The notes under the pieces: generated by a model | What the model was told of the DNA's origin: nothing | What the model saw: only the letters and a program-made list of their open reading frames with translations | The model's database searches: none | Part shown: positions 34,995-60,782 of the stretch, piece after piece | How the letters are laid out: every line of letters begins with the position of its first letter | How positions within the stretch are numbered: the first letter of the stretch is position 1 | DNA from: an uncultured Gammaproteobacteria bacterium | GTDB taxonomy: Bacteria > Patescibacteriota > Patescibacteriia > Magasanikbacterales > JBBTQS01 | DNA length: 64,000 bases | Direction: 5' to 3' | Assembly: GCA_965230935.1 (NCBI GenBank) | Contig: OZ246400.1 | Span: 438,359-502,358, forward strand | Program-made: the position numbers and the translations under genes

Positions 34995-35294
34995 TTACCG
35001 CGTGCGGGCGCGGGTGCCGGACTTGATTCCCTGACCAGCGTGAAGCGTGTCGGTCAGGTTGTACCCGGCGAGCTGTGGGAACCGATCGGTGTACTGCTTG
35101 GCCACCAGAGTACGGCGCTCCAGTGGAGCCCGACGCACCTGCGAGCGTGCCAGCAGAGCCGCGGCCTTGACTCGGCCGTTGTCGATCTCGCGCCTGATGG
35201 CGCCACCCATGGCAATCACGGTCTGTGTATTGCCACCGACACGCTGCTCACGGGTGAGCCGCTCGTCTACCGGTAGTGGGATACGTGCTCCCAT
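34995..35294 (-). CDS. High-GC small basic protein B (100 aa) of a two-gene overlapping cassette
   Basis: MGARIPLPVDERLTREQRVGG...; ATG overlaps upstream stop (TGATG); downstream CA-rich tract ACACAACACAACCAGG + hairpin + T-run. Confidence 0.4.
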   Translation of the reverse strand: MGARIPLPVDERLTREQRVGGNTQTVIAMGGAIRREIDNGRVKAAALLARSQVRRAPLERRTLVAKQYTDRFPQLAGYNLTDTLHAGQGIKSGTRARTR

Positions 35295-35551
35295 CAGATC
35301 TTCCCCCTCATGCGTCGACGCCCAGCGCGACCGGCCTGTACTGGTGCCGGCGGCGCCATGCGCTGCAGGTGCCGCTCCAGCCGATCGGCCTCGCGATCGT
35401 TGCCGCACGCCCGAAGCCGCTCGATCACCGCGTTCCCCGAGACACGCTCGGTACGCAGCGACATCGCCGAAGGGAGCGATCGTGGCGCCTCCCCATGTGC
35501 CGCGCCTCCAGCAACTGGACCGCGGCTATGCCCAATGGATTCTTCACCCAT
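35294..35551 (-). CDS. High-GC small protein A (85 aa) of two-gene cassette; possible TA/regulatory pair (unassigned)
   Basis: ATG 35551 with GAGGAG SD 9 nt upstream; MGEESIGHSRGPVAGG...RLERHLQRM; GC-rich. Confidence 0.4.
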   Translation of the reverse strand: MGEESIGHSRGPVAGGAAHGEAPRSLPSAMSLRTERVSGNAVIERLRACGNDREADRLERHLQRMAPPAPVQAGRAGRRRMRGKI

Positions 35552-35671
35552 GGTTGTTTCTCTCCTCTTACTCTTTTTGATGTAAAGACTTCATGTCTAA
35601 ACGAAAACAGCGAGCGTTCCTCATGTAACCCGCTGGAAAAAGTATACTAATATTATAAAAAAAGTCAAGTA

Positions 35672-38043: not shown

Positions 38044-38553
38044 CTAAATACGTAGCCACTGGCCAAAACGATCTGAAAATGGCATTTTTTGCTCTTCTGG
38101 GTCGTGCTCAATATAAAACGCAAGTAACGCACGAACATCATCTATTCCCTCACGAGCCATTGGCACGGCAATACGAGGACGTACGACATTGGTAAAATCA
38201 ACATACACAATCGCATCCTCCGGATGCGTCACGATCCAAAATCGCTCAATGTTTTGAAATGGAAAAAAGGTATCCTCAAGAACCAACCCTTTATTACTAA
38301 CGCCAAAAAACACCTGACGTGGTTCTTTAACTTCATGAAACGCAACAATAATAGCAACAAAAATAGTTACCACCGCAAAAAAGTAATTTTGATCAGCAAG
38401 CGCATAAATCAACAACGCCAATACCAGCAATCCTGCACCAATATACCACCACCGATTACGATCATGTTTATGAAATTCAGGAATCTGCCATCCGGCCAAC
38501 ATGTCATCCTCTGCAACCCCTTTGGGGAGGATAATCTCTATTTGGTCTGCCAT
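38044..38553 (-). CDS. Hypothetical membrane protein (2 TM then soluble domain)
   Basis: start reassigned to MADQIEIILPKG (38553) because listed N-extension overlaps upstream gene; WWYIGAGLLVLALLIYALADQNYFFAVVTIFVAIIVAF TMs. Confidence 0.45.
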   Translation of the reverse strand: MADQIEIILPKGVAEDDMLAGWQIPEFHKHDRNRWWYIGAGLLVLALLIYALADQNYFFAVVTIFVAIIVAFHEVKEPRQVFFGVSNKGLVLEDTFFPFQNIERFWIVTHPEDAIVYVDFTNVVRPRIAVPMAREGIDDVRALLAFYIEHDPEEQKMPFSDRFGQWLRI

Positions 38554-38647
38554 ATGCTTATAGTATACCATTGCTGATACGGCACAACAATATACAACGA
38601 ACAAACCCAGCCTACCGGCCGGGTTTGTGATTGTATGAAACTTTTTT

Positions 38648-39208
38648 CTATGAACTCGCTGCCCTGGACTCAAAAAATAATTTTGCCTGAACAAATGCCG
38701 CCACCACTTGGATAGAAAACATCAAAAGAAATAACGTGGTAAACCCCCATTGATTAACAATAAATGTTCCGATGAACACTGCGAATCCTACCACAATCAT
38801 TGTCCCACCATTATCCAGACCCCATTGTAAGCCTGCGTTATCCTTCTGGATGTACTGAGCATACAACGCATTTAATGGTGCTGAAAGACATGCAACTGCT
38901 AATGCAAAAAGGATTTGAAGTAAAAATAACTGCCAAGGATTCTGTATCACCAAATACCCTAAACTCCCAAGTGCATAAAGAAGATACCCAATCACAGTAA
39001 TCAATTCCTTATTAAGACTGTCAGAGATTTTTCCAATGACTATCATTAAGACACCTGCCGCCAAACTAAACACGGCTGTGGTGTATCCAATGTCTAAAAT
39101 ACTCCCCCCTATTTGTTCTACAAAAACTGCGTAAAAAGGCCCGATGAGATTCCCACCAAGATTTGCAATCAAACCTGCCAAAAGCAGTATCTTATATTCT
39201 CTTCTCAT
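38648..39208 (-). CDS. 6-TM protein resembling one half of an MFS transporter (possible truncated/half transporter)
   Basis: 186 aa, six hydrophobic helices with MFS-like short loops; no partner half nearby. Confidence 0.4.
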   Translation of the reverse strand: MRREYKILLLAGLIANLGGNLIGPFYAVFVEQIGGSILDIGYTTAVFSLAAGVLMIVIGKISDSLNKELITVIGYLLYALGSLGYLVIQNPWQLFLLQILFALAVACLSAPLNALYAQYIQKDNAGLQWGLDNGGTMIVVGFAVFIGTFIVNQWGFTTLFLLMFSIQVVAAFVQAKLFFESRAASS

Positions 39209-46301: not shown

Positions 46302-49154
46302 TTACTCATCAAACTGAGCAAAACTTCCAGCACTTGGCGGCTCTGATGCTTTGAACTCTGCAACCACTTCCGGCTTACTCTTTTCAATTGCGCTGAGCAC
46401 TTGTTGCATGCTTACTCCTGCTTGTCCGGCATTGCCTTTACCAATGGCCTTGACCATTGCCTTTTGCAACACCTTCAATGCTTTGACCGTTCCAACACTA
46501 TCGCTAAATCCTTGTTGTGCTGTAGGTGAGCTATTGATTGCAGACATGGCAGCATCTCCTTGTCCAGCAGCGATCAACTTACCAAGATTTTCGCCCACAC
46601 TTGCGGCATCTGGTTTTGCTCCACCGACCGCCTTTTCAAATACGTCTTGGAAATCTTTTGGATTGGTGACATGGACACTGAGTACGCCACTTTTCTCCTT
46701 GTCATCTTTCTCTTCACCCTCTTCTTTGCCACCTGATGCTGGTTTTTCAGTCTTCGGTGCCGCCTTTGGTTCGGCCTTTGGCGCACCTTTCACACCTGCT
46801 GCTTCAGTTGGTTCAGCTGCTTCTTCTGGTTTTTTCCCTGGTTTGCGACGTGATCCTACCCCACTTGTTGGACGTTTTGCTTTGCCAGTAGGTGGCGCCT
46901 CTTCAGCTGCACCCTCCTCTGGTGCAGCAGCAGCCGCATCAGCTGGTGGTGGAGTTGGTTTTGGTCGACGACGAGCTCCTGATCCTACACCACTGGTTGG
47001 TCGTTTTGCTTTGCCAGCTGGCGGCTCAGTAGGCTCAGGTGGTTCTGGACGATCATGTGAGCCGGCATCAACATCTTGGTCTTGGCCAGGACGTTGGGTT
47101 GGAGCACCACCGCCACCGGCAGCTCCTCCACCGCCTGCGGCGCCTCCTCCTGCACCACCTGCGCCAGCTGCACCACCACCGGCAGCTCCGCCTCCTCCTG
47201 CACCACCTGCACCGCCGCCAGGACCTGGTGCCGGACGACCAGCAGCACTGCCATGGAATCGGGTGTTCCATGCGTCTCTTTCTGCTCTTGAGTCATCACC
47301 TTTGTTTCGTTTCATGTACTCTTTCTCCATAGCAGCAAAGTCAACAACCTTATCGTATGTATCATCATTTACACCAGGAGCAAGTTGATTCTGATGTGCA
47401 GGAGTTGATCCAGCAGGGAACTTGCGACCTGCCTCTGTCAAAAGTTCGGTATCATCAAAGTCAGTGTAGTCTTTTTGCTTATCAGCAACCGCCCCACGAA
47501 TCTCTTTACGCGCACCATCAGTCGGATTAGTGGTTCCGCGCTCTTGTACTTGTCGCTTGTTGTATGCCTCTTTAACATCTGACTGTTTCTCATCACCACT
47601 CTTAAAGAAGAAACCTCCAACTGTACCGAAATCTTTTGCACCTTTGCGCGCAGAATAAATCTGAGACCCGTCTTTTAAGAATGGAATTTGTGCTTTTCCT
47701 GATGCCACATCTTTTGATGCAGACTTCAAAAAGTTAACCCCTTTATTAACCGTATTCCCAACAGTCTGCTGAGTAAGCTGTTTAGTATAGCCATATCCTT
47801 TATCCACTCCAGCACGCGCATATCCGGCAATCTTCGCGGCAACAGTAGCCGCAGCCCCGCTCATCCCACCGGCATATTTAATTCCTCCAATGAGCACAAC
47901 ACTACTCACAATAAAGGCAGCCATGTTATTCCAGGTCGAAATCTCAGTATTCGTAATACTTGGTGTGTCTTTAAATGCTTTCCCTTCTCCACCAAGTGCA
48001 TCAACGACCACTTTTACGGAATCAGAATTCATCAAATCAAAAGCAGCCTCATTTTGCTGAACCGAAGTTAAGGCAAGCCAGACAAAAAATACCAAGATTG
48101 GACCAACCGTAATTTGTTTCACCAAATGATCTACCCACTTACTAAAGTATTGTCTAGTTGCAGGAAGCACGGCAAACAAAAATGCCAAAGGAGATAGAAT
48201 AATCAAAATCCAAATGCCAACAATTCGAAAAACAATCACCAGCAACAAGGTAAGCGCGATCGTCAACGCAAAAGTAGAAATAATTAACGTCAAGCTCAAC
48301 CCAATCCAGTTTTGAATAAAGTCATAACTTACAAACGACGCTGCGATTTGGGTGCCAATTTCTGCAAGTGCGCTCCCTGTTGCTTCACCTTCGGCCTTTC
48401 CAACAGTGTCCTGAACGGCAATAGCCGCTTGATCGATCAATGGTTTAAGCTTGAGCCAAGAATCAATACGCAATAAGTTAACAAAGTTTCTTCCTGCACT
48501 GTCATATAAGGCACTGGAGAATGTCAACATGACCACTTGTGCAGCATCAAGAAGTAGTCCAATAATGGTTCTACTGAAGTTCACCAAAAAGATTGCCAGG
48601 ATCAATCGTGGAATCAATTGTTGATATTGATATGAAGCAATCCGAAAGACCGTTGCAAAAGCGATCACCAACAATACCACCACAAAAAACATGTTTGCTA
48701 CATCCCGGATTGTTGCCCAACCGCTATTAACAAACTCATTATCCAAAAAGTTATTGTACTGGATCATCAAGATAAACGTATTCCATGACCAAATCAGCAC
48801 CCCATTTACCAATTGACTAAACGATTGAATAATAATGTCAAAAAGCAAAAAGAACACATAGAGCATGAAACCTTCGCCAGCCAAACCAACAGCACCTGAC
48901 GCCAAACCACCGAGCAATGCTGCTCCGGTCGCCCCTAAAAACTTTCCAATCTTGGCAACTTTTACCCCTTCAGAATAGTCAGCAACATCACTGTTGAGCA
49001 CCACTGATGTATCTGTTGCGGTGTATGGCACATTGACTGCGGCTTGTGCCTGCGCCATGCCAAGCGAACCAAACAATGAAGACAAGGTAAATACAAAAAG
49101 ACACGCGCCCACAATCGCTTTTCTTAATGAAAGATGTCTATATATGCTTTGCAT
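46302..49154 (-). CDS. Polytopic membrane protein, VirB6/PrgH/TcpH-like by topology and operon position, with long Gly/Ala- and Pro-rich low-complexity region and charged C-terminal domain
   Basis: signal peptide + at least 6 TM in first 450 aa; PAPGPGGGAGGAGGGGAAGGG... stretch; 950 aa. Confidence 0.45.
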   Translation of the reverse strand: MQSIYRHLSLRKAIVGACLFVFTLSSLFGSLGMAQAQAAVNVPYTATDTSVVLNSDVADYSEGVKVAKIGKFLGATGAALLGGLASGAVGLAGEGFMLYVFFLLFDIIIQSFSQLVNGVLIWSWNTFILMIQYNNFLDNEFVNSGWATIRDVANMFFVVVLLVIAFATVFRIASYQYQQLIPRLILAIFLVNFSRTIIGLLLDAAQVVMLTFSSALYDSAGRNFVNLLRIDSWLKLKPLIDQAAIAVQDTVGKAEGEATGSALAEIGTQIAASFVSYDFIQNWIGLSLTLIISTFALTIALTLLLVIVFRIVGIWILIILSPLAFLFAVLPATRQYFSKWVDHLVKQITVGPILVFFVWLALTSVQQNEAAFDLMNSDSVKVVVDALGGEGKAFKDTPSITNTEISTWNNMAAFIVSSVVLIGGIKYAGGMSGAAATVAAKIAGYARAGVDKGYGYTKQLTQQTVGNTVNKGVNFLKSASKDVASGKAQIPFLKDGSQIYSARKGAKDFGTVGGFFFKSGDEKQSDVKEAYNKRQVQERGTTNPTDGARKEIRGAVADKQKDYTDFDDTELLTEAGRKFPAGSTPAHQNQLAPGVNDDTYDKVVDFAAMEKEYMKRNKGDDSRAERDAWNTRFHGSAAGRPAPGPGGGAGGAGGGGAAGGGAAGAGGAGGGAAGGGGAAGGGGAPTQRPGQDQDVDAGSHDRPEPPEPTEPPAGKAKRPTSGVGSGARRRPKPTPPPADAAAAAPEEGAAEEAPPTGKAKRPTSGVGSRRKPGKKPEEAAEPTEAAGVKGAPKAEPKAAPKTEKPASGGKEEGEEKDDKEKSGVLSVHVTNPKDFQDVFEKAVGGAKPDAASVGENLGKLIAAGQGDAAMSAINSSPTAQQGFSDSVGTVKALKVLQKAMVKAIGKGNAGQAGVSMQQVLSAIEKSKPEVVAEFKASEPPSAGSFAQFDE
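47040..47260. repeat. GC-rich low-complexity tandem-like repeats (GGn/GCn codons) encoding Gly/Ala/Pro tract inside VirB6-like gene
   Basis: ccaccgcc / gcaccacc / ggagc iterations; generates long spurious antisense ORF 46351..47388. Confidence 0.5.
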
Positions 49155-49206
49155 ATACTCTGCAAAGAGTATACCATTTTTTATTAACGATGCCCACGTA
49201 TTTTTG

Positions 49207-49248
49207 TGTAAAAAAAGAAGAACCCCACAATCGTGATGATCGTGGGGG
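49207..49248 (-). terminator. Terminator for SPFH-like gene: CA-rich tract then CCCCAC...GTGGGG hairpin then U-run (minus strand)
   Basis: rc reads ...CACAACAACGGGGACCCCCACGATCATCACGATTGTGGGGTTCTTCTTTTTTT. Confidence 0.45.
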
Positions 49249-49290
49249 TCCCCGTTGTTGTGACTCGGCGAAGAAGCGTTCGAAGAGTGG

Positions 49291-50226
49291 CTAGCTCCTC
49301 TTTTTCTTCTTGCGTGAGCCGCCGCCCTTGCCCCGGAACGCCGCCATGAGCTTCATGCGGTTCTCCAGCGAGATGTCGGCCCACTTCTCGTCGGTCATCA
49401 TCTCGGCGAAGGCTTTGAAGTCGGCCATCTTCTCCGGCGTCATGTCCCCCACGTGAGCCGGAGTGGTGGAGCGAGGCTTCGCGGTCTGCTTGTGCTCGGT
49501 CTGCACCGCCACCACGCGAAACCCGCAGGTCTTGGGCAGTGGATCACGGCCGTCCACCACACCCGGATCCGGGTCGCTGGTGTTGCAGCCACTGACCACG
49601 GCGGCCTTGAGCGTGTCGTCCATGGCCTGGAGCTCGTCCAGCGTCGGCTTCTTGTCCAGACCGTCGATGAACCGCTTGAGCTCGAACGCCGCCTTACGCC
49701 AGGCCGCGTCCACGATGGCCGCCTTGCCGTTGTCGCCCTTCTTGACGTCGGCGTGGTTCATCAGGTACTTGGCGCACTGCGCCATGGCCGGACCATCACC
49801 TGTGTTGAGCCGCACGCTGAACTTGATCGCCGCCGTAACGTTGGACCCGTCGTGCGCCACGTACTTGATGTGCGCCAGGCAGGCGAACATCCAGTTGTTG
49901 GGACACACGAAGGTCTGGTGACGCAACATCGCGCCGCCAGGCACGAAGTGCTTGCCCCGACCACCGGTGTTGCTCTGGAACGGCCGCACCAGGTCGCCAT
50001 CGCTGTCCACCGCGATCCCCATCTTGCCCGACGGGATGATGAACTCGGACTTGAAGTAGTAGCTGATCGCCAGGATGATCCCGAAGATCGCAATGCCGTA
50101 CCCGGGGACGTCCGGGCTGATCCAGCCCTTCCAGGCGCCAAGCACTGCTGCGATCGCCGTCACGACGAACGCGGTGAAGTAGCTGCGCCAGTCCCATCCC
50201 TCTTTCTTGCTCAAGATGCTCTGCAT
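49291..50226 (-). CDS. High-GC membrane protein with SPFH/band-7-like core (tentative), 2 N-terminal TM, basic tail
   Basis: IIPSGKMGIAVDSDGDLVRPFQSNTGGRGKHFVPGGAMLRHQ...AAIKFSVRLNTGDGPAMAQ resembles SPFH beta-rich core; GKGGGSRKKKKRS tail; 311 aa. Confidence 0.35.
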   Translation of the reverse strand: MQSILSKKEGWDWRSYFTAFVVTAIAAVLGAWKGWISPDVPGYGIAIFGIILAISYYFKSEFIIPSGKMGIAVDSDGDLVRPFQSNTGGRGKHFVPGGAMLRHQTFVCPNNWMFACLAHIKYVAHDGSNVTAAIKFSVRLNTGDGPAMAQCAKYLMNHADVKKGDNGKAAIVDAAWRKAAFELKRFIDGLDKKPTLDELQAMDDTLKAAVVSGCNTSDPDPGVVDGRDPLPKTCGFRVVAVQTEHKQTAKPRSTTPAHVGDMTPEKMADFKAFAEMMTDEKWADISLENRMKLMAAFRGKGGGSRKKKKRS

Positions 50227-50682
50227 CTTATCCTCCCTCTGTGTGTGGTGTGTAGTGAATCTTCTTCGCCGATCTGCATTGTTTAAAGAGCTGCTTCTGC
50301 AGCAAACAATGAAGTTTGTCGCTTCTGCAACCGTATATCATATCATAATTTGGTGTTTTTGTCAATATTAATTTAGCTAAAATAAGATAAAATCCTAAAA
50401 TAAGTCACAAACTATGCACAGAAAAGCCTTTGTTTGCTGGGTTTTCTATTGACAGAGGGGTACTGTTTTGCTACTGTAAAAGTGACTAAATGTGTCAAAT
50501 AGTTCTTTGTAAAAAGTTGCAAAATCGCACCGGAATGAGGAGTGCAAGCTCATCACTCTAGCGCGATTTTGCAACCAAGAGGGAAAGCCAACCACTTGTA
50601 GTCGTTCTGCTGGAGGTCCCGGGTGGGGCCTGCGACAGGAGTTGCGCCAGGCCACACTCAGACCTATCGGGGGAAAGAAACG

Positions 50683-51531
50683 ATGAAGACCAGGACCCTT
50701 TCGACCATGGCCGTGCTGGCGGCTCTGGTGCTCGCGGGCTGCGCCGCTGAGGCGCCGACCGACGGCAACATGACGCCGGACCAGCAGATCGACCAAAAGA
50801 CGTTCACCGTGGAGGTGGTCGTCGAGCACGCCCAGAATCGTGTGGGCAACGCCGAGGTCACGGCGATGACGCACGGCGCGGTGGCGTACACCGACCACAA
50901 CGGGGTGGCGACGTTCGACAGTCTGCCGGCCGGGCCGGAGACGTTCAAGGTGGACGCGCCGACCATCGAGAAGCCGCTGTACGTGGACGTGAACGTGGGC
51001 GAGGACGACGCGCCGATCACGACCGAGACCGTCACGATCGACCCGGCCGACGCCACCGACACGCCGACGCCGAGTGACGACACCTCGCCCATCGCCGGGC
51101 TGGATCCGGAGCTGGACGAGTACGTCAAGATCGGGTGGGCCACGTGGCTGAGCTTCGACGCCGAAGGCGCGCAAATGGCCGGCGGTGGGCCGAACGACTG
51201 GTACGAGATCGGGTACAACGCCAAGCAGGGCGCGTACAAGATCTACGACCAGGGTCATCCGTTCAGCACCAACTACATCGACACGATCGCCTGCTTCGTG
51301 GAGGTCAAGTCGGACTGCGGTGCTGAGGCGTGCCTGTCGTGCGAGGACCTGATGGTCGGCAACAAGGGGTTCTACTACTCCACCATCGGCACGGTGAGCG
51401 AGAACGGCCACAAGTTCGAGTTTAGCTCAACCAAGACCACGGGAAGTGGGACCGATCCGGTCGGAACAGACGTGTTCACCCTGGAGACCGACCCGGACGG
51501 GAACTACTTCGAGGGCTACGGCGACGAGTAG
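50683..51531 (+). CDS. High-GC secreted lipoprotein A (lipobox LAGC) with N-terminal Thr/Asp/Pro-rich region and 141-aa C-terminal 4-Cys domain shared with lipoprotein B
   Basis: MKTRTLSTMAVLAALVLAGCAAEA; start reassigned to ATG 50683. Confidence 0.5.
   Translation: MKTRTLSTMAVLAALVLAGCAAEAPTDGNMTPDQQIDQKTFTVEVVVEHAQNRVGNAEVTAMTHGAVAYTDHNGVATFDSLPAGPETFKVDAPTIEKPLYVDVNVGEDDAPITTETVTIDPADATDTPTPSDDTSPIAGLDPELDEYVKIGWATWLSFDAEGAQMAGGGPNDWYEIGYNAKQGAYKIYDQGHPFSTNYIDTIACFVEVKSDCGAEACLSCEDLMVGNKGFYYSTIGTVSENGHKFEFSSTKTTGSGTDPVGTDVFTLETDPDGNYFEGYGDE
51101..51525 (+). repeat. Direct repeat copy 1 (425 bp, identical to 51866..52290), encodes shared C-terminal domain
   Basis: read base-by-base against copy 2; identical protein-level ORFs also appear in all overlapping frames of the ORF track. 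Confidence 0.85.
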
Positions 51532-51585
51532 TCCCTGAAGACCTGGCCTGGTCAACTCCCTCACACAACTAACACACAACAAGAA

Positions 51586-51619
51586 AACCCCCAGCAGACT
51601 GCTGCGGGTGTTCTTTTTT
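51586..51619 (+). terminator. Rho-independent terminator CAGCAG-A-CTGCTG + T9 after lipoprotein A (preceded by CA-rich ACACAAC tract)
   Basis: perfect palindrome 51591..51603, T-run 51611..51619. Confidence 0.55.
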
Positions 51620-51628
51620 TAGTAAACT

Positions 51629-51657
51629 ATTGCATTTACAATCGCTTTTATCTACAA
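51629..51657 (+). promoter_or_regulatory. Sigma70-like promoter TTGCAT-17-TACAAT for lipoprotein B (AT-rich segment inside high-GC island)
   Basis: hexamers 51629..51634 and 51652..51657; AAGGAGG SD before ATG 51691. Confidence 0.4.
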
Positions 51658-51690
51658 TCACCTAAGGCACAGGCAAAGGAGGAAACAGCC

Positions 51691-52299
51691 ATGCCATACC
51701 GATATGCGATGGGCTTCGTGCTCATGATGCTCTTGAGCACCTGCGCAGACACGACGTCCAATGAGGATGGGCGTCCTCATGGACTGACCTCTGATCCCGG
51801 CCTGTTTACGAACGAAGACGCCCGACCATGGTCACCCAGCCTCACCGGCAATCCGATTGATGGCATGGATCCGGAGCTGGACGAGTACGTCAAGATCGGG
51901 TGGGCCACGTGGCTGAGCTTCGACGCCGAAGGCGCGCAAATGGCCGGCGGTGGGCCGAACGACTGGTACGAGATCGGGTACAACGCCAAGCAGGGCGCGT
52001 ACAAGATCTACGACCAGGGTCATCCGTTCAGCACCAACTACATCGACACGATCGCCTGCTTCGTGGAGGTCAAGTCGGACTGCGGTGCTGAGGCGTGCCT
52101 GTCGTGCGAGGACCTGATGGTCGGCAACAAGGGGTTCTACTACTCCACCATCGGCACGGTGAGCGAGAACGGCCACAAGTTCGAGTTTAGCTCAACCAAG
52201 ACCACGGGAAGTGGGACCGATCCGGTCGGAACAGACGTGTTCACCCTGGAGACCGACCCGGACGGGAACTACTTCGAGGGCTACGGCGACAACCAGTAG
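51691..52299 (+). CDS. High-GC secreted lipoprotein B (LLSTC lipobox-like) with the same 141-aa C-terminal 4-Cys domain
   Basis: MPYRYAMGFVLMMLLSTCADTT; perfect AAGGAGG SD; 202 aa. Confidence 0.5.
   Translation: MPYRYAMGFVLMMLLSTCADTTSNEDGRPHGLTSDPGLFTNEDARPWSPSLTGNPIDGMDPELDEYVKIGWATWLSFDAEGAQMAGGGPNDWYEIGYNAKQGAYKIYDQGHPFSTNYIDTIACFVEVKSDCGAEACLSCEDLMVGNKGFYYSTIGTVSENGHKFEFSSTKTTGSGTDPVGTDVFTLETDPDGNYFEGYGDNQ
51866..52290 (+). repeat. Direct repeat copy 2 (425 bp identical to 51101..51525); downstream about 80 bp also about 90% similar including terminator
   Basis: see copy 1. Confidence 0.85.
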
Positions 52300-52403
52300 T
52301 CCTTGAAGGCCTGGCCTGGTCAACTCCCTCACACAACCCAACACACAACAAGAAAACCCCAGCGAACTGCTGAGGGATTTCTTTTTTGTAAAGAGTTTTA
52401 TGA

Positions 52404-55400
52404 TTACTTTTCTTCTTTGACAATAATCAACCCTTCAAAATGCGCTGATGCATAATTAAAGTTTTTTGGATCTTTACAATCACCCTTATCTGGGTTGGCT
52501 GCAACTTCTTGCCATGCACCTGTTGATCCATTATGGGAAATACCAGACTGATTCCATTCCATATCAGATCCAGCACCCTTGGCATTACACCAATTCCAAT
52601 TATCCATAATCTGCACTCTTGGCCGAAAAGCGCAATACCTGTCTCCCGTCAAAAAGCCATACTTCTCCGGTTCAAATGCAATCGGTGTTTGAGAACCATC
52701 AGGATTCTCAATATAAGGCACATCCCCAGATCCAACCACGTACAATCCATCATTCTGATCATCTACCAAGCCGGTATTAGACGTACCAGCACCTTCTCCA
52801 GCACAATCACCAAATGAGTAATAATGGATAAACTGATAAAATCCATCAGAACATGCATCAGGATGTGCACCAAATTTATCACCCTCATCAGAACAACTTG
52901 GCACACGGTTTTTATATTTACCGGCAAATCGATCTACATCCGCGTATATGATATTACCATTTTCTTCATAGTCACTATTCCACTTCACTGCCATCTCAGT
53001 AATTGGCATTTGGTTATCAGCAACATCAGCATAAAACTCTACACTTGCCACCATGGACGAACCATTGGAAACAATAAAGCCTTTTTCCTGCCCATTCACT
53101 CCCACTGCCTTGTCATCGCCCTTTTGACATCCTGACGCAGTACAAATCACAGCATTCACACGTGGCGGATGAATAGGCGTCTTTGGACCACCTTGTCCTA
53201 TCGCCTCATTGCTAATGCCGTGGTTTAAGAATCCATTTTCATTTGAAACAATCTTTCGTGCCAAAAATGGATCAACAACACTTGATGGATTGGTCTGTAC
53301 ATACTTATTATCCTGCCATGTCCAGACGTTGTATACCCGCGCAAAAATGTTTTGTAGCATTTGTCGTGCATCTGCCTTTTCGATCGTACCTGATTCTGGT
53401 GCATCATCATTTGTAGGACCAAGTTTATCAAGATCAACGCGACCAATATGCACATCTGTATTGGCATCACCTAGTGGGATCCCCATACACACACCGGAGT
53501 CAACAATAAGCATACCGTCCATGGTCTCAAGAGTCTTTGGTGGACACTGCTCTTGTGAGTTACAAAATGCACCATGATGCTCTCCACCAATACACATACT
53601 TGCACGACAACTATCCCGATCTTGCACAAAGGCCATTGTTCTTTTATCCCCATCTACAAACATGGAGTTATCTATATTATGCGTATAGTTATTCTGACAA
53701 GATAATGGAGACCCGGCATTCAAATACTCAAGTCCTGCACCTTGAATCACCTCGGTCGAATCAGTTGCCACATACCATGGTACGGCATACTCGAGTGATG
53801 ATAATGCCGGATGTGGTGTTGTCTGCACGAGTTGCGGCGGACCACTTTCACTTAAATCTTTAATTGGTGGCGAGGTTGCATGTGCTGAACCAAATGGCAA
53901 AAAGTCCTGATCAAAGGAATACGATGGTCCAAATGCACCAACATCCAAAACCGCAGGTGGGCCAAGCCAAAACGTAGAATATGAATTTACTCGATCAGTC
54001 CATGCAAGATTAGTCTTGTTGTCACTATCTGTACTCAGTGGCGCCTCAGGGTCATACACCTGTGCCACCTCAGTACAATACTCACGCAGATAGAAAATTA
54101 CCGCAAAGTTTACATTAGCATCTCCATTACCAGCATCACACATACGGTGCTCAATTGCAGTAAGTTTTCCGGTGTTGGCATCAAACACTACATCCACTAA
54201 CATGCGATGCCAATCAGGATCACCGGTTGGACAGAATCCTTTTCCTACATTGGCATGTGCATTTGGATGCATCTTAGTCTTGAGTATTGTCTCATCCATG
54301 GTAAATACATAATCGTTTTCCCAGAACCAACGCAATCGGATTGTTTTGTCTTCTTCCCAATCCCACTCATCACCGTCTGGGATTAAGTCGGCATCATCCA
54401 CTACCACCATCTGACTCATCCAACGTCCTGGTGCTACAGGACCACTTCCTTCTTCATGTACCCCATTAAATCGCCCATCAGTGAATATTGCCATTGGGGT
54501 GTCAGTTGGTAGATAGTCATGAGAGCTTCCTCCTCTGGCAACACGAGATTCCGGATCGATATAAATCTCTACTCGCTCAACATCTTCAAATCGCAAATTC
54601 GCATCATCCAGAATCCCACTATAATATGTAGGATGATCTTCATCATCAGCATGGACGCGTGAGTAACAATCAGTTCCACAAGCACCAAGATTAAATTTAC
54701 GCGGCAATCCACCTGGCGATCCCCAGCCTAGGTGATTCACCACCATCTTATACGATGCCGAGTTCAAATAAGGTCGATTCCCTGCATTTTTGTATTCCGG
54801 ATTTGAGGTTTTTACATGTGTTTCATAAACAAGCTCTCCCCCGTAGTCATCCTTGGCATCAAAAACAGATCCCGCAACATACGTAAAGTCATTCCAATCC
54901 CGATGCGCCCCTGCACGCCAGGCATTACCACTGGACTCTACACAATAATATTGCCCACCCTGACCTACCGGCAACTGATACCCTGCCTCATCATATTGGT
55001 TAAAGATATCACTACTCCCCGAAAGTAAGGTTGCCGGATACCACGTCTGACACGCATGAGTAAATTGATTGGCATTAACTGATGTCGACAAATCCTCTTC
55101 TAAACAATACCCTTGTGCACCAAATACCTTTTGTGTGCTCTTCAGATACCGACAGGTGCCGTGTTCGCGATCTGAATCATGTTCAAATCCACCCCGATCA
55201 TCAGTACAATCAGACTTGTGATCACATGCTTGGCCATCACGGGATTGCTCATCCGGACTAAATCCACCGCTACAGACCCCAACAGGTAACACGCCGGTCA
55301 AATCGTAATATCGCGGCGCACTATTTTTAGCACCAAATGACGCCTTTTGATAGGCACAGGCATTACACGCTTGCAGATTACCGTTAGCATCGAACTTCTG

Positions 55401-58400
55401 GCAAGTGTTTACATTTTGATGAGAAGTAAACTTTTCAATCGCGTCCCCGGCCTGGGAGTATGACACCACCACCGATGGTGGGAATGGACTATCTTCTTCT
55501 GGATACATGCGACAACTTTGCGCCACCAAATCCTCTGCCTCTGCATTGATTCCAATGACACATCGTCCAGAATAACAATACCCATTTACCGGAAGATTTG
55601 GCTGCCCATCAAGGGGTAAGTTATACGAACAGGCAGTACCATCACTTTGTCCGGCACAACTTCCACTCGCACCAAGATTTGCAGCATTTTTATGACGGAA
55701 TCCCATGGAGACCTCATTCTTCAGTGCATCAACAACCACCGGCTCGAGATCTGCAGCTTGAAACTTATTAAAGATGGAGTACCCACTATAATCAGCTGCT
55801 GCCCATGACGTGTCGCGACCGGTGTAGAGTGCTTTGGTCAAAATTTGATTATAGGTATCATTTTTCTTCTCCACCCATCGAGTACACTCGCCTGATGTTT
55901 GATCACCTTTCCATTCTGCACACACACCAACATTGGTACACACATCTCGTTCTTCTCCTGCACGATTGTCCCACGCTTTAAATGATGACTTACATGAGAG
56001 CCACTCACTACACACACGATCACGGTTAACCTTCAAGATAATGTTACTGTTGTTCACTCCACATTTTGTTCGTGACTTAAACAAGATACGCTCCAACACT
56101 CCCTCAAGCTCATAAAAGTTGTCCGGTAAAGTGTCTTGAGTTGCAGCATCAAGATAATCTCGACAAAGTTGTGCAGTCGCATTGTACGCTTGTAACCCTG
56201 TTACCTGCTCTGCCCCATCAAAGACAGCTTTATACCCTGCTTGTGCTTCACAAAAATCAACAACCCCGGACTTTACACTCTCAGTACACCGAACACCAAA
56301 GGTCACCTCATCTCCAGCTCCTCCAATCAAATCTCCGACTGCGGTTGGAGTAAAGGTTTCTACTGTGGTCACTTTCACCTCAGTTAATTTTTCCCAACAC
56401 GCTTGAAATTTAGGCTCACAGTTACTATCTGCTACCCATACAAAATCATTAATATCGATCGCTCCTGGAGCATATTGTTTCACCTGCGGACACCCACCAG
56501 ACAAATCAAGATATTCTGCACATTCAATCGGTGTTCCATTAAACGTTGCACCCAAATCTGATGATGCAAGTGGTTCGTGCGGTTGTGGGGCTACCGGATT
56601 ACCGTTATTCTGCGCTGATGCGGCATAGGTCATTTGCGTACTCCACTTTTTCGTGAGATTCGCGGTATCATCAAACAGCACACATCCGTCTTCAAGACTC
56701 ACTTGTCCGGCACAACTGGTGGCATCTAATGCTTCATCATTTAAGAAGTAGTATGGCTTACCAAGAGGCATGCTGTCACTGACATCATTACGGTCAACAA
56801 AGGCGGTACAGCCACCATAAATAGACTTACATTCACCTACCGTACCATCATAGAGCGCATCACCATTTTTCCAAATACCAAACACATTGCCCGCTTCAAC
56901 ATACCCGTCATAACACGGCTCCGGCTGACCAGAATCAGTCACTGATTTAAACCATCCATCGCGAGTCGTACCATCTGGCATGACCACTTTTTCTTGATAG
57001 GTACATCGGTTTGGCCCAGGATCTTTAAAGTAGAAAGTTTGTGTTTGGTTTGAATATGAATCACATCCATTTTCAAACACCTTACACATCTGCGTTACAT
57101 ATTGATCTGGCAAATTATTCAAATATATTGTGTCAACACTACCATTTGCCTTAGTTTCACCAAACGCCTGACACCCTTTTTGCTCGGCCACACACGCAAA
57201 CTCAGGATTATTGACTACATAAATTGCTTGATCTTCAGGAACCACAACGTCATCCTCCGGATTACTGGTGTTGGTTTGCGGATCAATACCGTCATTGAAG
57301 ACCTGGGAACTTACCGATGCGGAGTTTTGCGTATTAATAAACGCCTGACATCCCACCACTTCTTCACGACATACCCGATTAAACCCGGTCAAGAACTGTT
57401 GCTCACCAAGTTCAGTGCTATATTGCTGACAACCAAGCGCCACACCAGGTAAGTTATCATTTGGGTTACTATCACATGCTACCGGCGTATTCCAAGAATC
57501 TTTAATCAAATAATGTACGCCATTTGCCTCTTTCACAAACAACTTATCAATAAAGTACGTTGGCTCGCCCCCACCAACAGCATTCAAGAGCATCCGCCCG
57601 GTCACCACCTGAGTATTATCAACGGTGATTGGGCCAACGGTGTACTGTCGCCATACGGCATCAAGACTTGCTGAATGTGCACCACTGCTGCCTGAGATTA
57701 CTTGACCGGCCTTGTCTTCGAGCTCTAGATCGAATGACACACCGCTGGCACCTTTACCCCAGAAGGTAATGGTATAGGCATTTGCATGTTGCAATACAAA
57801 CCGAGGGGACACAATACCGGTTGCTCCGCCTTCTAACGCATGATCTCCCACAGTCACCGCCTCAGTTGAAAGTGATGCATTTTCCCAATCAATAACGCCG
57901 GCACCACCTTCAAAATCAACTTCATAGATAATGTTTCCTGATGCTGATGCTGCACCGGTATATTCTCGACAAAGATTCTCTCCAGCATCACACTTGTGAC
58001 TCATAGATGGAAGTGCTTTGTACAAACATGCACCGTCAAGCGAGACAGTTCCTCCGGTCTCAGTACATACATCCGCTGCAATTGCTTCGTTTCGACGAAG
58101 TGGTGCACATGAATCAGAAACAATAATCAACTGGGAAATAAATCGATAATACGCATCACCTTCACTGCCAAACAATTCACGACAATCCGGATTGTAGTTT
58201 GGATCAGTATCGCGATTTGCATAAATCGTCGCATTACAGGTTGAAGCAAACTCTGCTAACACCGCAGCGTCATCAGTAAGATATTTTGGCGCATCGGCGT
58301 CCAGTACAAAATCAAAGGACTTGAGCTGGAATCCAACGGTATCAGATCCCTCCCAGGTGTAGAACAGATCATGACCATCCGGACCAACATCAGCCGGTTT

Positions 58401-60782
58401 TACACAGTGTTGTAAATCAGTATAGTACTCAACCTTCTCTCCTCCACTCTCTGCTGAGTCTAAATTCGTAAAACTAGTACACCCAACTGACTCTGCAGCG
58501 CAGGCTACAGCAGTCTCAGGAATAAAGTAATCAATCTCCTCAAGCGGATGGAGAGATGATGCGCTTTGGGCAAATTGCGCATACCCAACACACTCCGCAT
58601 CACAGACATTATTTTGTGATGCAATTGCCGGGACGTCAGGATCGCCATTTGCCGGGGTATACATAGAACATCCCACATCAGCTAAGGTACACAATTGTGC
58701 ATAATCCCCACACTCAAATGGATCAGTGAGTGGATCGCCGGTACATCCAAGATAGTCCGGCGGAATACGCAAATAATTAATGTTGTCCCCTAGCCCCTGT
58801 TGTAAGGCAGTACACCCGGCAGCAGCCTCACTACACGTCCCCACATCTTTATTAAAGAAAATTTGCTTGCCGGCAGTATCCCAACTACCAGACTCAACTT
58901 GATCAGTAAAGTACCCGCGACAACCAACATTTGCCTCAGTACAATACTCATTATTGATGGTACTTGCCAAGTACGATACATTGGCACCGGAGCGAGCCGT
59001 TAAATTGGTACATGATTCATAGTATGCCGGACAACTATTTCCTTTGAAATCCCACGCATTTTTCTCTCGCAAACAATATCCCCATGCACCAACGCACTCG
59101 CCATTTTCATTGGTAACCACACAGGTCGGATCATCAACACAGGCTTCTTGTCTAACAGCCCCGCGATCTGATTGCAATACCGGCCCATATACTTTGGCGC
59201 GACATTGCATCAGAGGAGCAATCAACAACCAATCCGGATCAATCAAGTGACAATATGGATGATTATCATCAGCTACTCCGTCCGGGAAACTTGAGTCGTC
59301 ATAATTACAATCATCAAAACCATCGACGACTGTCTGGAGTGAGACTCCAGCGATTGGCGCCTCAAGTGCTGCGATTTCCCACCCAATTGGCAAAATACGT
59401 GCGCGACGAAGTTTTACTAAATTACTATAACAATACGCCTCGGACCAACAAGAGTTCTGGGAATTTTGCGCAGAATTTGGCGGGAGGAGCAGCCAATCGC
59501 CGTGAATCAAATCTTGTTCTATTGCTTGGGCAACCGTCATTGCTGACTGACTCAAATCAGCTCGAATGGCCTGGGCAAATTTTTCATCAATTGTACAGTT
59601 ATTCTGTTGTGGAAATTCGTCAGGACACGCCAAAAACTCAGTTACAATATCAACACTATTTACACTTTTAACTTCAGCCGTATAAATGTCTGCATACGTT
59701 GCTTCAAATGCTTGCTTTCCTGCTGACGGTTGTGAAAACTGATTAAATGCCAAAGATGATGCTGCAGGAGCTGCTGGAACTGGAGTCTGTCCTTTGGTAA
59801 ACCACTGCTCAATCAACTTATCAGCCAATGTACTTAAAAATGTCCCGGCAATTGAGGCAACAATCCCTTCACCACTGGCGACAAATGCATTAAAGGTGTC
59901 ATTCTGACGCTCATTAGCCGCTTTTGGACCGGAGATCGATGCGGTTTCTTCAACTGATGCCGCTGGTGTCACCACTCGTTCGGAAACTTGATCAGTCACT
60001 GGCTTAAATGAATTGCTTGCCCGTCGTGTAAGTTCTGCTTCTTTTTGCGCATTGAGCACATCAAGCTGTGCTTGGAATTGTGTAAAGTTAGAAAGACTCA
60101 AGTCATTGGAAAGCGGATCAAATGCTTTTTTGTACTCTGCCAAAAAGACACTTGGCTCGTTTTCTTCTGCAAAGGTCTCCCAATTATCGATAATGTCACG
60201 AAAATCACATCGTTGTTGTAACTTGGTTTCACTTGGAGTACCAAAACCACTACCACCTCCCCCACCTAAAATATTCCCCACTTCAAAACCACTAAACAGT
60301 GCCGCTGGAATACCATAAAGCAGATACGGCGCATCCGGAGAACATAGACTTAATCGCCGTGTTGAACCATCTGAAAACTCACCCAAAAAACTATCTCCGA
60401 TTGACTCGACCGCTTCACCTGCTGCACCATAGGCAGCATTTTCCAAATACTCACCCCAATCTACTTCAAACGCCAATGGTGTTTGTCCCCACTCACCAGT
60501 AGCAATATAGGTTGCGGTATCAGCAGCCAACTTATTTCCATATTGTGATGCTAAGTTGACCAGTGCAACCGTTCCGGCTTGCAATAAGAATTCAGCAATG
60601 TTTGTGACTACTCGTTCCCAAATATTGTTTCCTACGGTGATTCCCTCAAGCACCGGCGCGGTAACTGCAAATTGCGCATGTGCTGGTTGTGCCGGAACCA
60701 TGCCCATCACGGTGAGTGCAACCGCAAAAACACCAAGCAGTGTTTTCTTTATCCATGACGATTGTGAACGTGGTGTATGCAT
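52404..60782 (-). CDS. Giant (2792 aa) secreted cysteine-rich cell-surface protein (adhesin/pilus-like candidate) of the T4SS-like operon
   Basis: signal peptide MHTPRSQSSWIKKTLLGVFAVALTVMGMVPAQPAHAQ; very high Cys content throughout; single uninterrupted ORF. Confidence 0.55.
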   Translation of the reverse strand: MHTPRSQSSWIKKTLLGVFAVALTVMGMVPAQPAHAQFAVTAPVLEGITVGNNIWERVVTNIAEFLLQAGTVALVNLASQYGNKLAADTATYIATGEWGQTPLAFEVDWGEYLENAAYGAAGEAVESIGDSFLGEFSDGSTRRLSLCSPDAPYLLYGIPAALFSGFEVGNILGGGGGSGFGTPSETKLQQRCDFRDIIDNWETFAEENEPSVFLAEYKKAFDPLSNDLSLSNFTQFQAQLDVLNAQKEAELTRRASNSFKPVTDQVSERVVTPAASVEETASISGPKAANERQNDTFNAFVASGEGIVASIAGTFLSTLADKLIEQWFTKGQTPVPAAPAASSLAFNQFSQPSAGKQAFEATYADIYTAEVKSVNSVDIVTEFLACPDEFPQQNNCTIDEKFAQAIRADLSQSAMTVAQAIEQDLIHGDWLLLPPNSAQNSQNSCWSEAYCYSNLVKLRRARILPIGWEIAALEAPIAGVSLQTVVDGFDDCNYDDSSFPDGVADDNHPYCHLIDPDWLLIAPLMQCRAKVYGPVLQSDRGAVRQEACVDDPTCVVTNENGECVGAWGYCLREKNAWDFKGNSCPAYYESCTNLTARSGANVSYLASTINNEYCTEANVGCRGYFTDQVESGSWDTAGKQIFFNKDVGTCSEAAAGCTALQQGLGDNINYLRIPPDYLGCTGDPLTDPFECGDYAQLCTLADVGCSMYTPANGDPDVPAIASQNNVCDAECVGYAQFAQSASSLHPLEEIDYFIPETAVACAAESVGCTSFTNLDSAESGGEKVEYYTDLQHCVKPADVGPDGHDLFYTWEGSDTVGFQLKSFDFVLDADAPKYLTDDAAVLAEFASTCNATIYANRDTDPNYNPDCRELFGSEGDAYYRFISQLIIVSDSCAPLRRNEAIAADVCTETGGTVSLDGACLYKALPSMSHKCDAGENLCREYTGAASASGNIIYEVDFEGGAGVIDWENASLSTEAVTVGDHALEGGATGIVSPRFVLQHANAYTITFWGKGASGVSFDLELEDKAGQVISGSSGAHSASLDAVWRQYTVGPITVDNTQVVTGRMLLNAVGGGEPTYFIDKLFVKEANGVHYLIKDSWNTPVACDSNPNDNLPGVALGCQQYSTELGEQQFLTGFNRVCREEVVGCQAFINTQNSASVSSQVFNDGIDPQTNTSNPEDDVVVPEDQAIYVVNNPEFACVAEQKGCQAFGETKANGSVDTIYLNNLPDQYVTQMCKVFENGCDSYSNQTQTFYFKDPGPNRCTYQEKVVMPDGTTRDGWFKSVTDSGQPEPCYDGYVEAGNVFGIWKNGDALYDGTVGECKSIYGGCTAFVDRNDVSDSMPLGKPYYFLNDEALDATSCAGQVSLEDGCVLFDDTANLTKKWSTQMTYAASAQNNGNPVAPQPHEPLASSDLGATFNGTPIECAEYLDLSGGCPQVKQYAPGAIDINDFVWVADSNCEPKFQACWEKLTEVKVTTVETFTPTAVGDLIGGAGDEVTFGVRCTESVKSGVVDFCEAQAGYKAVFDGAEQVTGLQAYNATAQLCRDYLDAATQDTLPDNFYELEGVLERILFKSRTKCGVNNSNIILKVNRDRVCSEWLSCKSSFKAWDNRAGEERDVCTNVGVCAEWKGDQTSGECTRWVEKKNDTYNQILTKALYTGRDTSWAAADYSGYSIFNKFQAADLEPVVVDALKNEVSMGFRHKNAANLGASGSCAGQSDGTACSYNLPLDGQPNLPVNGYCYSGRCVIGINAEAEDLVAQSCRMYPEEDSPFPPSVVVSYSQAGDAIEKFTSHQNVNTCQKFDANGNLQACNACAYQKASFGAKNSAPRYYDLTGVLPVGVCSGGFSPDEQSRDGQACDHKSDCTDDRGGFEHDSDREHGTCRYLKSTQKVFGAQGYCLEEDLSTSVNANQFTHACQTWYPATLLSGSSDIFNQYDEAGYQLPVGQGGQYYCVESSGNAWRAGAHRDWNDFTYVAGSVFDAKDDYGGELVYETHVKTSNPEYKNAGNRPYLNSASYKMVVNHLGWGSPGGLPRKFNLGACGTDCYSRVHADDEDHPTYYSGILDDANLRFEDVERVEIYIDPESRVARGGSSHDYLPTDTPMAIFTDGRFNGVHEEGSGPVAPGRWMSQMVVVDDADLIPDGDEWDWEEDKTIRLRWFWENDYVFTMDETILKTKMHPNAHANVGKGFCPTGDPDWHRMLVDVVFDANTGKLTAIEHRMCDAGNGDANVNFAVIFYLREYCTEVAQVYDPEAPLSTDSDNKTNLAWTDRVNSYSTFWLGPPAVLDVGAFGPSYSFDQDFLPFGSAHATSPPIKDLSESGPPQLVQTTPHPALSSLEYAVPWYVATDSTEVIQGAGLEYLNAGSPLSCQNNYTHNIDNSMFVDGDKRTMAFVQDRDSCRASMCIGGEHHGAFCNSQEQCPPKTLETMDGMLIVDSGVCMGIPLGDANTDVHIGRVDLDKLGPTNDDAPESGTIEKADARQMLQNIFARVYNVWTWQDNKYVQTNPSSVVDPFLARKIVSNENGFLNHGISNEAIGQGGPKTPIHPPRVNAVICTASGCQKGDDKAVGVNGQEKGFIVSNGSSMVASVEFYADVADNQMPITEMAVKWNSDYEENGNIIYADVDRFAGKYKNRVPSCSDEGDKFGAHPDACSDGFYQFIHYYSFGDCAGEGAGTSNTGLVDDQNDGLYVVGSGDVPYIENPDGSQTPIAFEPEKYGFLTGDRYCAFRPRVQIMDNWNWCNAKGAGSDMEWNQSGISHNGSTGAWQEVAANPDKGDCKDPKNFNYASAHFEGLIIVKEEK

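Follow-up and report, generated by a model that had tools for sequence, protein, structure and literature searches.

A high-GC island encoding a predicted membrane protein and two predicted lipoproteins in a variable slot of a type IV secretion-like gene cluster of a Patescibacterium

Results and discussion

In this work we have analysed a 64,000-nucleotide stretch of the contig OZ246400.1 (positions 438,359 to 502,358; assembly GCA_965230935.1, placed by GTDB in the Patescibacteriota, Magasanikbacterales), called the window below, and in particular a high-GC island which lies within its type IV secretion system (T4SS)-like gene cluster. The island is bounded by a VirB6-like gene (46302-49154, minus strand) and by a gene for a giant protein of 2792 amino acids (aa) (52404-60782, minus strand). 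Read along the minus strand, the stop codon of the giant gene at 52404 is followed by a hairpin that resembles a terminator on both strands (52387-52353), the genes of a 202-aa and a 282-aa lipoprotein, both of which point towards the giant gene, a 456-nt AT-rich control region (50227-50682), the gene of a 311-aa membrane protein, a terminator, a promoter-like site and finally the virB6 start at 49154. An earlier note, made from the letters of the window, had described a compositionally foreign island at this place, and our analysis bears this out. A threshold segmenter gave a GC content of 0.590 for 49221-52380 compared with 0.466 for the whole window; in 400-nt windows the values between 49200 and 52400 were 0.53-0.69 with a single dip to 0.39 at 50200-50599, and those of the flanks (48000-49199 and from 52400) were 0.40-0.47. 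The anomaly is confined almost wholly to third codon positions. The GC contents at the first, second and third positions (GC1, GC2 and GC3) are 0.56/0.45/0.90 for the 311-aa gene, 0.58/0.45/0.92 for the 282-aa gene and 0.53/0.45/0.83 for the 202-aa gene, and GC3 of the native neighbours (recG, the virB4-like and virB6-like genes, the giant gene and ksgA) is 0.31-0.46. The coordinates of all features are collected in Table 1.

Are the three open reading frames (ORFs) of the island real genes? In the proposed frames all of them have the periodicity GC3>>GC1>GC2, which is the classical coding pattern. The lipoboxes and hydrophobic helices fit these frames too, as do the ribosome-binding sites, promoters and terminators, and we consider the genes to be real. 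We also considered structured RNA as the source of the high GC content; the strict three-nucleotide periodicity argues for protein coding instead, and Rfam gave no match above threshold. The public annotations show a different picture, with ORFs of 277, 321 and 114 aa called antisense to the three genes. These are shadows of the real genes: their pattern is inverse, with GC1 of 0.83-0.86, and their composition is a nonsense rich in Val, Leu and Arg. The miscalls probably arise because a gene caller trained on low-GC sequence favours the frame with high GC1, which is the antisense frame of a GC3-rich gene, and as a result of the antisense calls the true lipoproteins are missing from the protein databases.

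Table 1. Positions of the island, its genes and control elements, and related features in the window
Feature	Position	Strand	Basis or detail
High-GC island, whole	49221-52380		GC windows and segmenter
311-aa orphan membrane protein	49291-50226	-	ORF, GC3 0.90
282-aa lipoprotein (302 aa if the start is GTG 50623)	50683-51531	+	ORF, GC3 0.92
202-aa lipoprotein (signal MPYRYAMGFVLMMLLSTC, short linker, 141-aa module)	51691-52299	+	ORF, GC3 0.83
Exact 425-nt repeat, copy 1	51101-51525	+	100% identity
Exact 425-nt repeat, copy 2	51866-52290	+	100% identity
Predicted strong promoter of the 311-aa gene, TTGACA-17-TG-TATGAT	50337-50365	-	11 of 12 consensus matches, best site of the island
Near-palindromic operator-like element TTTTATCTTATTTTAGCTAAA	50372-50392	-	6 nt upstream of the -35 of the 311-aa gene
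Weak promoter candidate of the 282-aa gene	50449-50477	+	TTGACA 50449-50454, TACTGT 50472-50477, spacer 17; below scan threshold
Structured 5' leader of the 282-aa gene	50485-50682	+	Folding; a second stem extends to the ribosome-binding site
Promoter candidate of the 202-aa gene	51630-51658	+	TTGCAT 51630-51635, TACAAT 51653-51658, spacer 17; below scan threshold
Predicted intrinsic terminator of the 311-aa gene	49223-49247	-	10-bp stem and T-run; CACAACAA tract before it, ~49262
CA-rich tract CACACAACTAACACACAACAAG and terminator hairpin (51585-51619), copy 1	51557-51619	+	Sequence
CA-rich tract and terminator hairpin (52353-52387, both strands), copy 2	52326-52387		~88-90% identical to copy 1, indels
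virB6 promoter-like site, TGGGCA-17-TG-TATACT	49168-49196	-	Extended -10 TGGTATACT ends ~14 nt before ATG 49154
CA-rich tracts	13492-13528, 19535-19563, 51557-51597, 52326-52361	+	Sequence
CA-rich tracts	49262, 34981	-	Sequence
Four further high-GC islets	12481-13560, 18701-19500, 34901-35620, 1-380		GC ~0.57-0.62, GC3 ~0.66-0.73
Antisense shadow ORFs in public annotations	49453-50286	+	NCBI source contig (931,061 bp), ENA ERZ930061
	50446-51411	-	As above
	51832-52176	-	As above

The abrupt change in composition, together with the lack of the true-frame proteins in public protein collections, could be taken to mean that contaminating high-GC DNA was joined into the contig during assembly. The absence of the proteins is accounted for by the antisense calls, and the left junction was recovered in two further assemblies with different k. 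Window 49078-51067 is matched with 100% identity by a Logan unitig of run ERR2281801, which links the 5' end of virB6 with the island. A MEGAHIT contig of 32,055 bp from the same run (ENA ERZ930061), on which the 950-aa VirB6-like gene lies within some 27 kb of native sequence, reaches by coordinate arithmetic into the island as far as about window 51227, where it ends. Both the unitig and the contig end at the left edge of an exact 425-nt repeat (51101) plus or minus k-1, which is how a de Bruijn assembler behaves at a true repeat with two left flanks. Furthermore, the borders of the island are exactly intergenic with the flanking genes intact, and four more small high-GC islets lie, each neatly between genes, in the same 64 kb. 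It is unlikely that the island is an assembly artefact, and such a chimera is the explanation to which we give the least credence of all those considered here.

Both plus-strand proteins have the signal of a bacterial lipoprotein (an Lgt/LspA substrate), taken here as a lipobox [LVI][ASTVI][GAS]C that lies within some 35 residues and is accompanied by an n-region of positive charge and an h-region that is hydrophobic. In the 282-aa protein MKTRTLSTMAVLAALVLAG followed by Cys gives the canonical lipobox LAGC, and in the 202-aa protein MPYRYAMGFVLMMLLST followed by Cys gives LSTC, where Thr at position -1 is unusual. The two proteins would be lipid-anchored on the cell surface. A gene for LspA (Peptidase_A8) is present in one related locus (L014; related loci are given L numbers throughout) and none lies within the window. 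The longer protein consists of the signal MKTRTLSTMAVLAALVLAGC, a CarboxypepD_reg-like domain (approximately residues 35-129), a linker of Thr, Asp and Pro and a C-terminal module of 141 aa, which it shares with the shorter one. This module is encoded by the 425-nt repeat and is acidic (pI 4.1) and predicted to be mostly beta, with four cysteines arranged as C-x7-C-x4-C-x2-C. In the approximately 95 nt which follow the two stop codons, comprising CA-rich tract and terminator, the identity falls to about 88-90% and indels occur, and the identical coding repeats beside diverged 3' flanks suggest that the copies have undergone gene conversion. We also considered the repeats as the target of a diversity-generating retroelement, whose template and variable repeats would differ at adenines, and rejected this, as the copies are 100% identical over 425 nt; there is also no ORF resembling a reverse transcriptase in the island.

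An exhaustive phmmer search of 1.84 billion representative proteins found no homologue of the 141-aa module, which is, judged by sequence comparison, a true orphan at the present depth of the databases. The earlier suggestion that the island encodes two lipoproteins sharing a novel C-terminal domain with four cysteines has therefore been confirmed both for the sharing and for the novelty. A word-index search with the lipoproteins gave no match, and their 302-, 282- and 202-aa forms were absent from a collection of 15 billion proteins. The N-terminal domain of the 282-aa protein matched CarboxypepD_reg (PF13620) over residues 66-129 at E 3.5e-4, but its score of 21.3 bits stays below the gathering cut-off, which is 32.3. 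The only match of this lipoprotein in the exhaustive phmmer search (E 1.2e-6, residues 35-103) was a protein made of CarboxypepD_reg repeats, and for this reason the domain is probably a beta-sandwich stalk. Weak NCBIfam and PHROG matches of the lipoproteins cover the signal regions only; among them, TrbK (TIGR04359) was matched at E 0.041 with 13.9 bits against a cut-off of 23 and over residues 7-26 only, with no match beyond the signal peptide.

The 311-aa protein has two N-terminal hydrophobic helices (approximately residues 13-36 and 42-57), followed by a soluble part with five cysteines and a lysine-rich tail; its pI is 9.4 and the Shine-Dalgarno sequence of its gene is GAGGGAGG. Among 5.8 billion clustered proteins its sole match was itself, on a Logan contig. 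No Pfam family matched it at E<=0.1 or at E<=10, nor did it have a match in NCBIfam, PHROGs or PADLOC. It had been proposed tentatively that this is a band-7/SPFH membrane scaffold with the two lipoproteins as accessory proteins. The likeness is loose: as in SPFH proteins, the N-terminus anchors the protein in the membrane and a soluble domain comes after it, and a low-confidence model shows an N-terminal hydrophobic hairpin, a mixed alpha/beta region and helices. This model, a single-sequence AlphaFold prediction with a mean confidence (pLDDT) of 41 and a predicted template modelling score (pTM) of 0.25, is too poor for use. Sequence support of any kind is missing, as neither Band_7 (PF01145) nor any other Pfam family matched at E<=10, NCBIfam was equally silent, and a phmmer search of the PDB at E<=10 listed no SPFH chain. 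An NfeD-like partner gene is also absent; the neighbours are the two lipoprotein genes, which have no NfeD match in Pfam or NCBIfam. We consider the SPFH assignment very improbable.

In many related loci another small membrane protein is found close to virB6. In about 60 loci (among L003-L094) the gene immediately upstream of virB6 encodes a conserved protein of about 190-230 aa, which is charged in its N-terminal part, has membrane helices at the C-terminal end and carries no Pfam annotation. The 311-aa protein is not a divergent form of it, since a hidden Markov model of the family was silent over window 40001-64000 at E<=10 and the topologies differ too.

Each gene of the island appears to be equipped with control elements of its own. 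The earlier note had proposed divergent promoters, and both of the plus-strand sites that it named do exist, but they fall below the threshold of our scan, and the best site is the minus-strand one of the 311-aa gene. A Shine-Dalgarno sequence, AAGGAGG, lies downstream of the promoter candidate of the 202-aa gene. The AT-rich intergenic segment is structured as had been supposed: the folding of the 216-nt leader upstream of the 282-aa ORF is much more stable than that of shuffled sequences (z = -3.96), with the main hairpin at 50516-50575, and no Rfam family matched it above threshold. The long hairpin gave rise to one spurious match, of 50516-50574 to the Rfam family mir-2076, with 34 bits where the gathering score is 90. 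Terminator-like hairpins on both strands are likewise present, namely at 49247-49223 (minus strand), 51585-51619 (plus strand) and 52353-52387, the last of which on the minus strand is terminator-like for the convergent giant gene. We inspected the hairpins as possible integron attC-like sites; none were evident on inspection, and the hairpins look like plain terminators with T-runs.

The virB6 gene also has a promoter-like site of its own, and this proved to be a property of the lineage. An extended -10 element, TGGTATA(A/C)T, is conserved upstream of virB6 in the grade of lineages which contains this genome; elements of the TGGTATAAT type were found upstream of virB6 in L002, L013, L054, L038, L015 and L016, and the extended -10 (TGGTATACT or TGGTATAAT) often lies 8-14 nt before the virB6 ATG (in the window and in L002, L012, L015 and L016). 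Such a short distance suggests that the mRNA of the channel operon is leaderless or nearly so. The virB6 promoter would further mean that in this grade the channel genes form a transcription unit apart from that of the giant gene. It had been argued that transcription of the operon must read through the island or be re-initiated behind it. Re-initiation is supported by the virB6 site; however, conservation of this site indicates that it is the ancestral state and not a consequence of the insertion.

What kind of cluster does the island lie in? The genes include a VirB4-like one (P-loop_TraG, E 2.1e-27), a PrgI gene (E 1.8e-7) and the VirB6-like gene, whose TrbL match of 23.1 bits stays below the cut-off of 25.9; its homologues carry TrbL_3. 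VirB4, VirB6/TrbL, a PrgI/VirB3-like protein and a TraC-like protein are thus found in one cluster, as in T4SSs of the monoderm (MPF-FATA-like) type, and the T4SS of Patescibacteria is of the monoderm conjugation type (PMC12102498). In the C-terminal half of the VirB6-like protein we noticed a low-complexity region of Gly, Ala and Pro (46741-47360, minus strand) with an internal repeat PTGKAKRPTSGVGS and a GC content of about 0.58; it adds a second reason for a local rise in GC, one that does not involve foreign DNA.

Using a VirB6 alignment we gathered 80 additional loci from relatives, which made about 90 related Patescibacteria loci in all; an earlier genome scan with the single VirB6 sequence as query had given no match. 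The homologues of the VirB6-like protein are named Patescibacteria or Parcubacteria and the closest is 41% identical, so no close sister genome was found. The gene order in the relatives is KsgA, a small gene, the giant gene, a slot, VirB6, further genes, PrgI, the TraC-like gene and VirB4, and the giant, 245-aa, 569-aa and 227-aa proteins of the window are homologous to their counterparts. In 45 relatives with both flanking genes visible, the gap between the giant gene and virB6 measures from 8 bp to 5.8 kb. The contents of this slot vary between loci, and slot proteins of different loci have no similarity to each other. In a rough neighbour-joining tree the loci with the approximately 200-aa membrane protein form one large clade; that protein is absent from the grade containing this genome, which carries slot lipoproteins instead. 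In the window the C-terminus of the giant protein and the N-terminus of VirB6 are intact beside the island. The island had been described as inserted inside an operon, and a foreign island does lie between the two genes, but the gap at which it lies is naturally variable, and no intact operon is broken by the island. A comparison with sister genomes had been suggested as well: distant relatives do have other contents in the slot, although with no close sister the absence of the island is seen at long distance only.

We consider it somewhat probable (roughly 0.55) that the island represents the variable slot of the T4SS cluster occupied by three foreign genes, most likely acquired horizontally, whose products are surface partners of the secretion or adhesion apparatus. 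According to this model, the slot is the gap between the giant surface-protein gene and virB6 in a chromosomal cluster of the monoderm conjugation (VirB4/VirB6/PrgI) type. The three genes would have come from an unsampled donor of about 65% GC, plausibly another Patescibacterium with the same layout of the locus. Each gene may be transcribed by itself, from a sigma-70-type promoter to an intrinsic terminator, and would be translated from a strong ribosome-binding site. Transcription of the 311-aa gene would run towards virB6 and end before it, and virB6 with the downstream channel genes would restart from the conserved extended -10 promoter. The lipoprotein genes run the other way, and the last terminator would also stop the convergent giant gene. 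Both lipoproteins would display the 141-aa module, one of them on the CarboxypepD_reg-like stalk, and the copies of the module are probably kept identical by gene conversion. Judged from their context, the proteins may serve the epibiotic interaction by making contact specific, by adhesion or by exclusion. Patescibacteria commonly carry genomic islands and horizontally transferred genes, and the transfer is reported to take place mostly between Patescibacteria (PMC12455944).

Several observations weigh against this model. No donor or homologue of the island genes was found; searches of phage, plasmid (tblastn and blastn), viral and JGI contig collections gave no match beyond a 50-nt one to a haloarchaeal nirK gene, which is due to chance. 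There is no integrase or transposase ORF in the island, direct repeats do not flank it, and the borders hold no tRNA gene, the nearest one being 9 kb away. Of the marks of a classical genomic island we thus find atypical composition and codon usage, and no integrase, repeats or tRNA target. The control region is AT-rich and shares its operator-like element with L013, another Patescibacterium; this gives at least the regulatory DNA the look of the phylum's own and not of an import from a foreign high-GC source. The recurrence of high-GC lipoprotein genes in the slot, described below, could reflect a process acting in situ and not repeated transfer. The structure models of the 311-aa protein and of the C-terminal module are both of low confidence (pLDDT 41 and 46, the latter also a single-sequence model). 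Independent assembly support covers the left junction and not the right one (52300-52404). Finally, the predicted promoters and terminators are consensus matches, and the suggested function is drawn from position and predicted localization. A prophage or a defence island is very unlikely; PADLOC and PHROGs were silent.

Slot lipoprotein genes are common in the grade containing this genome (L012, L013, L035, L038, L054, L074, L076 and L086 besides the window), and are often cysteine-rich and on the opposite strand. Some of the Patescibacteria carrying them have high GC contents themselves (L012, L035 and L074, about 0.6). In others the lipoprotein genes stand out: GC3 is 0.86 vs 0.31 for a 121-aa protein of L054, 0.82 vs 0.35 for a 92-aa protein of L013 and 0.73 vs 0.34 for a 149-aa protein of L038. 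The related loci add up to 1.29 Mb, of which 12.8% belongs to the slot; 12 of the 18 ORFs which are GC3 outliers lie there; counted by locus, 6 of the 12 loci with outliers have them in the slot (binomial p ~0.002). The recurrence hints at a swappable cell-contact module.

Could these be native genes, inherited vertically and evolving fast, whose GC3 was raised in place, for instance because a hot spot of recombination brings about GC-biased gene conversion or because selection acts on codon or mRNA properties? Lipoproteins upstream of virB6 are typical of the whole grade without the small membrane-protein gene, and the excess of GC3 recurs at the same place in several lineages. The two module copies, identical over 425 nt with 3' flanks that differ by about 10%, bear the signature of gene conversion, and the native appearance of the regulatory DNA would also fit. 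However, the other high-GC islets of the window encode unrelated proteins that are not lipoproteins, and the slot lipoproteins of different lineages have no sequence similarity. A shift of GC3 from about 0.4 to 0.9 in single genes is far larger than any that is known to be attributed to biased conversion in bacteria. We therefore regard an origin in place as quite improbable and prefer horizontal acquisition into the slot.

More questions are raised by the non-coding modules around these genes. The pattern TTTTATCTnATTTTAGnTAAA, which describes the operator-like element upstream of the 311-aa gene, occurs once in the window, where 0.05 occurrences are expected. It occurs twice in L013, both times within the slot and 16 nt upstream of the TTGACAAAA-17-TGCTATACT promoters of two lipoprotein genes, which have the general form TTGACAAA-17-TGnTATAnT. 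No other related locus has it without mismatches. The same composite, in which 15-17 nt separate the element from TTGACAAA and TGnTATAnT, was found in L096 (1131-1151), L205 (4371-4391), L167 and L200, and at other spacings in L104, L126 and L214, all of which are JGI or ENA metagenome contigs. Where this could be evaluated, the composite precedes ORFs of small secreted or membrane proteins that are GC-richer than their genomes (0.54/0.35, 0.60/0.41, 0.63/0.43 and 0.52/0.41); the surroundings are ordinary housekeeping genes (CysS, Dus, Tmk) and not T4SS genes. Downstream, a CA-rich tract with CACAAC lies between the stop codon and the GC hairpin with T-run in six of six high-GC genes of the window vs 2 of 37 native ones (Fisher p 4.6e-6; counting the duplicated pair once raises it to 2.5e-5), and a similar tract and hairpin follow the L096 and L013 genes.

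It may be that such genes belong to mobile, self-contained cassettes which move among Patescibacteria and land or are retained preferentially in the slot between the giant gene and virB6. Each cassette would begin with a palindromic element and a strong promoter, continue with a long leader and an orphan ORF rich in GC, and close with a CA-rich tract and a terminator. The modules just described, upstream and downstream, are what speaks for it. But the upstream and downstream motifs were found post hoc and by eye, which makes them no more than suggestive; a scan of JGI metagenome contigs for TTTTATCTnATTTTAGnTAAA gave at least 120 single matches, most of which are surely due to chance in AT-rich DNA. 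The other islets of the window are without the palindrome, L054 and L038 are without both modules, and end repeats, a recombinase and target-site duplications are all missing. The modules may instead be the usual style of strong promoters and terminators in the phylum or the binding site of a common regulator. We consider mobile cassettes unlikely as an explanation. A wider form of the idea, which is tentative and hardly more probable, is that a cassette family with ORFs for envelope proteins docks preferentially at this gap, that the surface lipoproteins are swappable determinants of exclusion or of specificity for a host or partner, and that standard gene callers regularly hide the genes by antisense calls.

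The four further islets each lie between native genes, and each has a terminator and a ribosome-binding site as well as a strong predicted promoter of its own. The products are orphans: a protein of 328/349 aa; one of 218 aa with an N-terminal anchor, together with a 49-aa membrane peptide; those of two small ORFs (85 and about 100 aa) whose stop and start codons overlap; and a membrane protein which runs off the start of the window. None of their products had a Pfam, NCBIfam, PHROG or PADLOC match. Elsewhere in the window (38044-39208, minus strand) an MFS transporter appears to be split into two overlapping ORFs of 216 and 186 aa; only the 186-aa ORF matches MFS_1, over half of the profile, and this could be a frameshift or a pseudogene.

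Acquisition of accessory genes into a variable slot can be compared with several known systems. The horizontally acquired islets of Patescibacteria (PMC12455944) are alike in their atypical composition, accessory orphan genes and location in a streamlined CPR (candidate phyla radiation) genome; in contrast to them, our island is only 3.2 kb long, has no mobility genes and no detectable donor, lies in a defined, recurrently variable slot of a T4SS-like cluster and carries genes for predicted envelope proteins throughout. It also resembles phage morons in its deviant composition, in its membrane and surface products and in the promoter-like site and terminator of each gene. Morons are autonomous promoter-gene-terminator units of deviant composition in phages, whereas the island is not in a prophage and matched neither PHROGs nor phage and viral collections.

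Lipoproteins associated with T4SSs include VirB7 and the entry or surface exclusion proteins TrbK and TraT, and in the prgQ operon of the enterococcal plasmid pCF10 surface-protein genes precede the channel genes. To our knowledge, monoderm systems have no VirB7. The layout of our locus is similar, with small, fast-evolving lipoproteins beside genes of the virB6/virB4 type, a giant adhesin-like protein upstream and channel genes downstream, but here the lipoprotein genes are on the opposite strand, their composition is foreign and the similarity to TrbK is at the level of the signal peptide only. VirB7 itself is a lipoprotein of small size and fast evolution, and there is no hidden Markov model for it (PMC12102498).

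The last comparison concerns the vsp/vlp-type loci of mycoplasmas. These encode variable surface lipoproteins with conserved 5' regions. The likeness lies in conserved promoter and leader modules before divergent lipoprotein bodies and in duplicated modules homogenized by recombination. The island differs in having no invertible elements, recombinase genes or repeat-tract switches, and the variation of its slot is seen between genomes and not within one.

Conclusions

The island, a set of accessory genes probably gained by horizontal transfer and placed in a variable region, is of a known kind; what is of interest beyond this is the recurrent, slot-specific GC-rich lipoproteins and the modules which flank them. 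High-GC islets in low-GC genomes are mis-annotated in antisense, and in this way real proteins, here three of them, escape homology surveys. The conserved promoter and terminator modules could serve as a search key for more such genes. The T4SS-like cluster is among the few candidate machines for host interaction of the epibiotic, mostly uncultured Patescibacteria, and a hypervariable slot with foreign surface lipoproteins within it would be a natural place to seek the specificity of attachment or exclusion.

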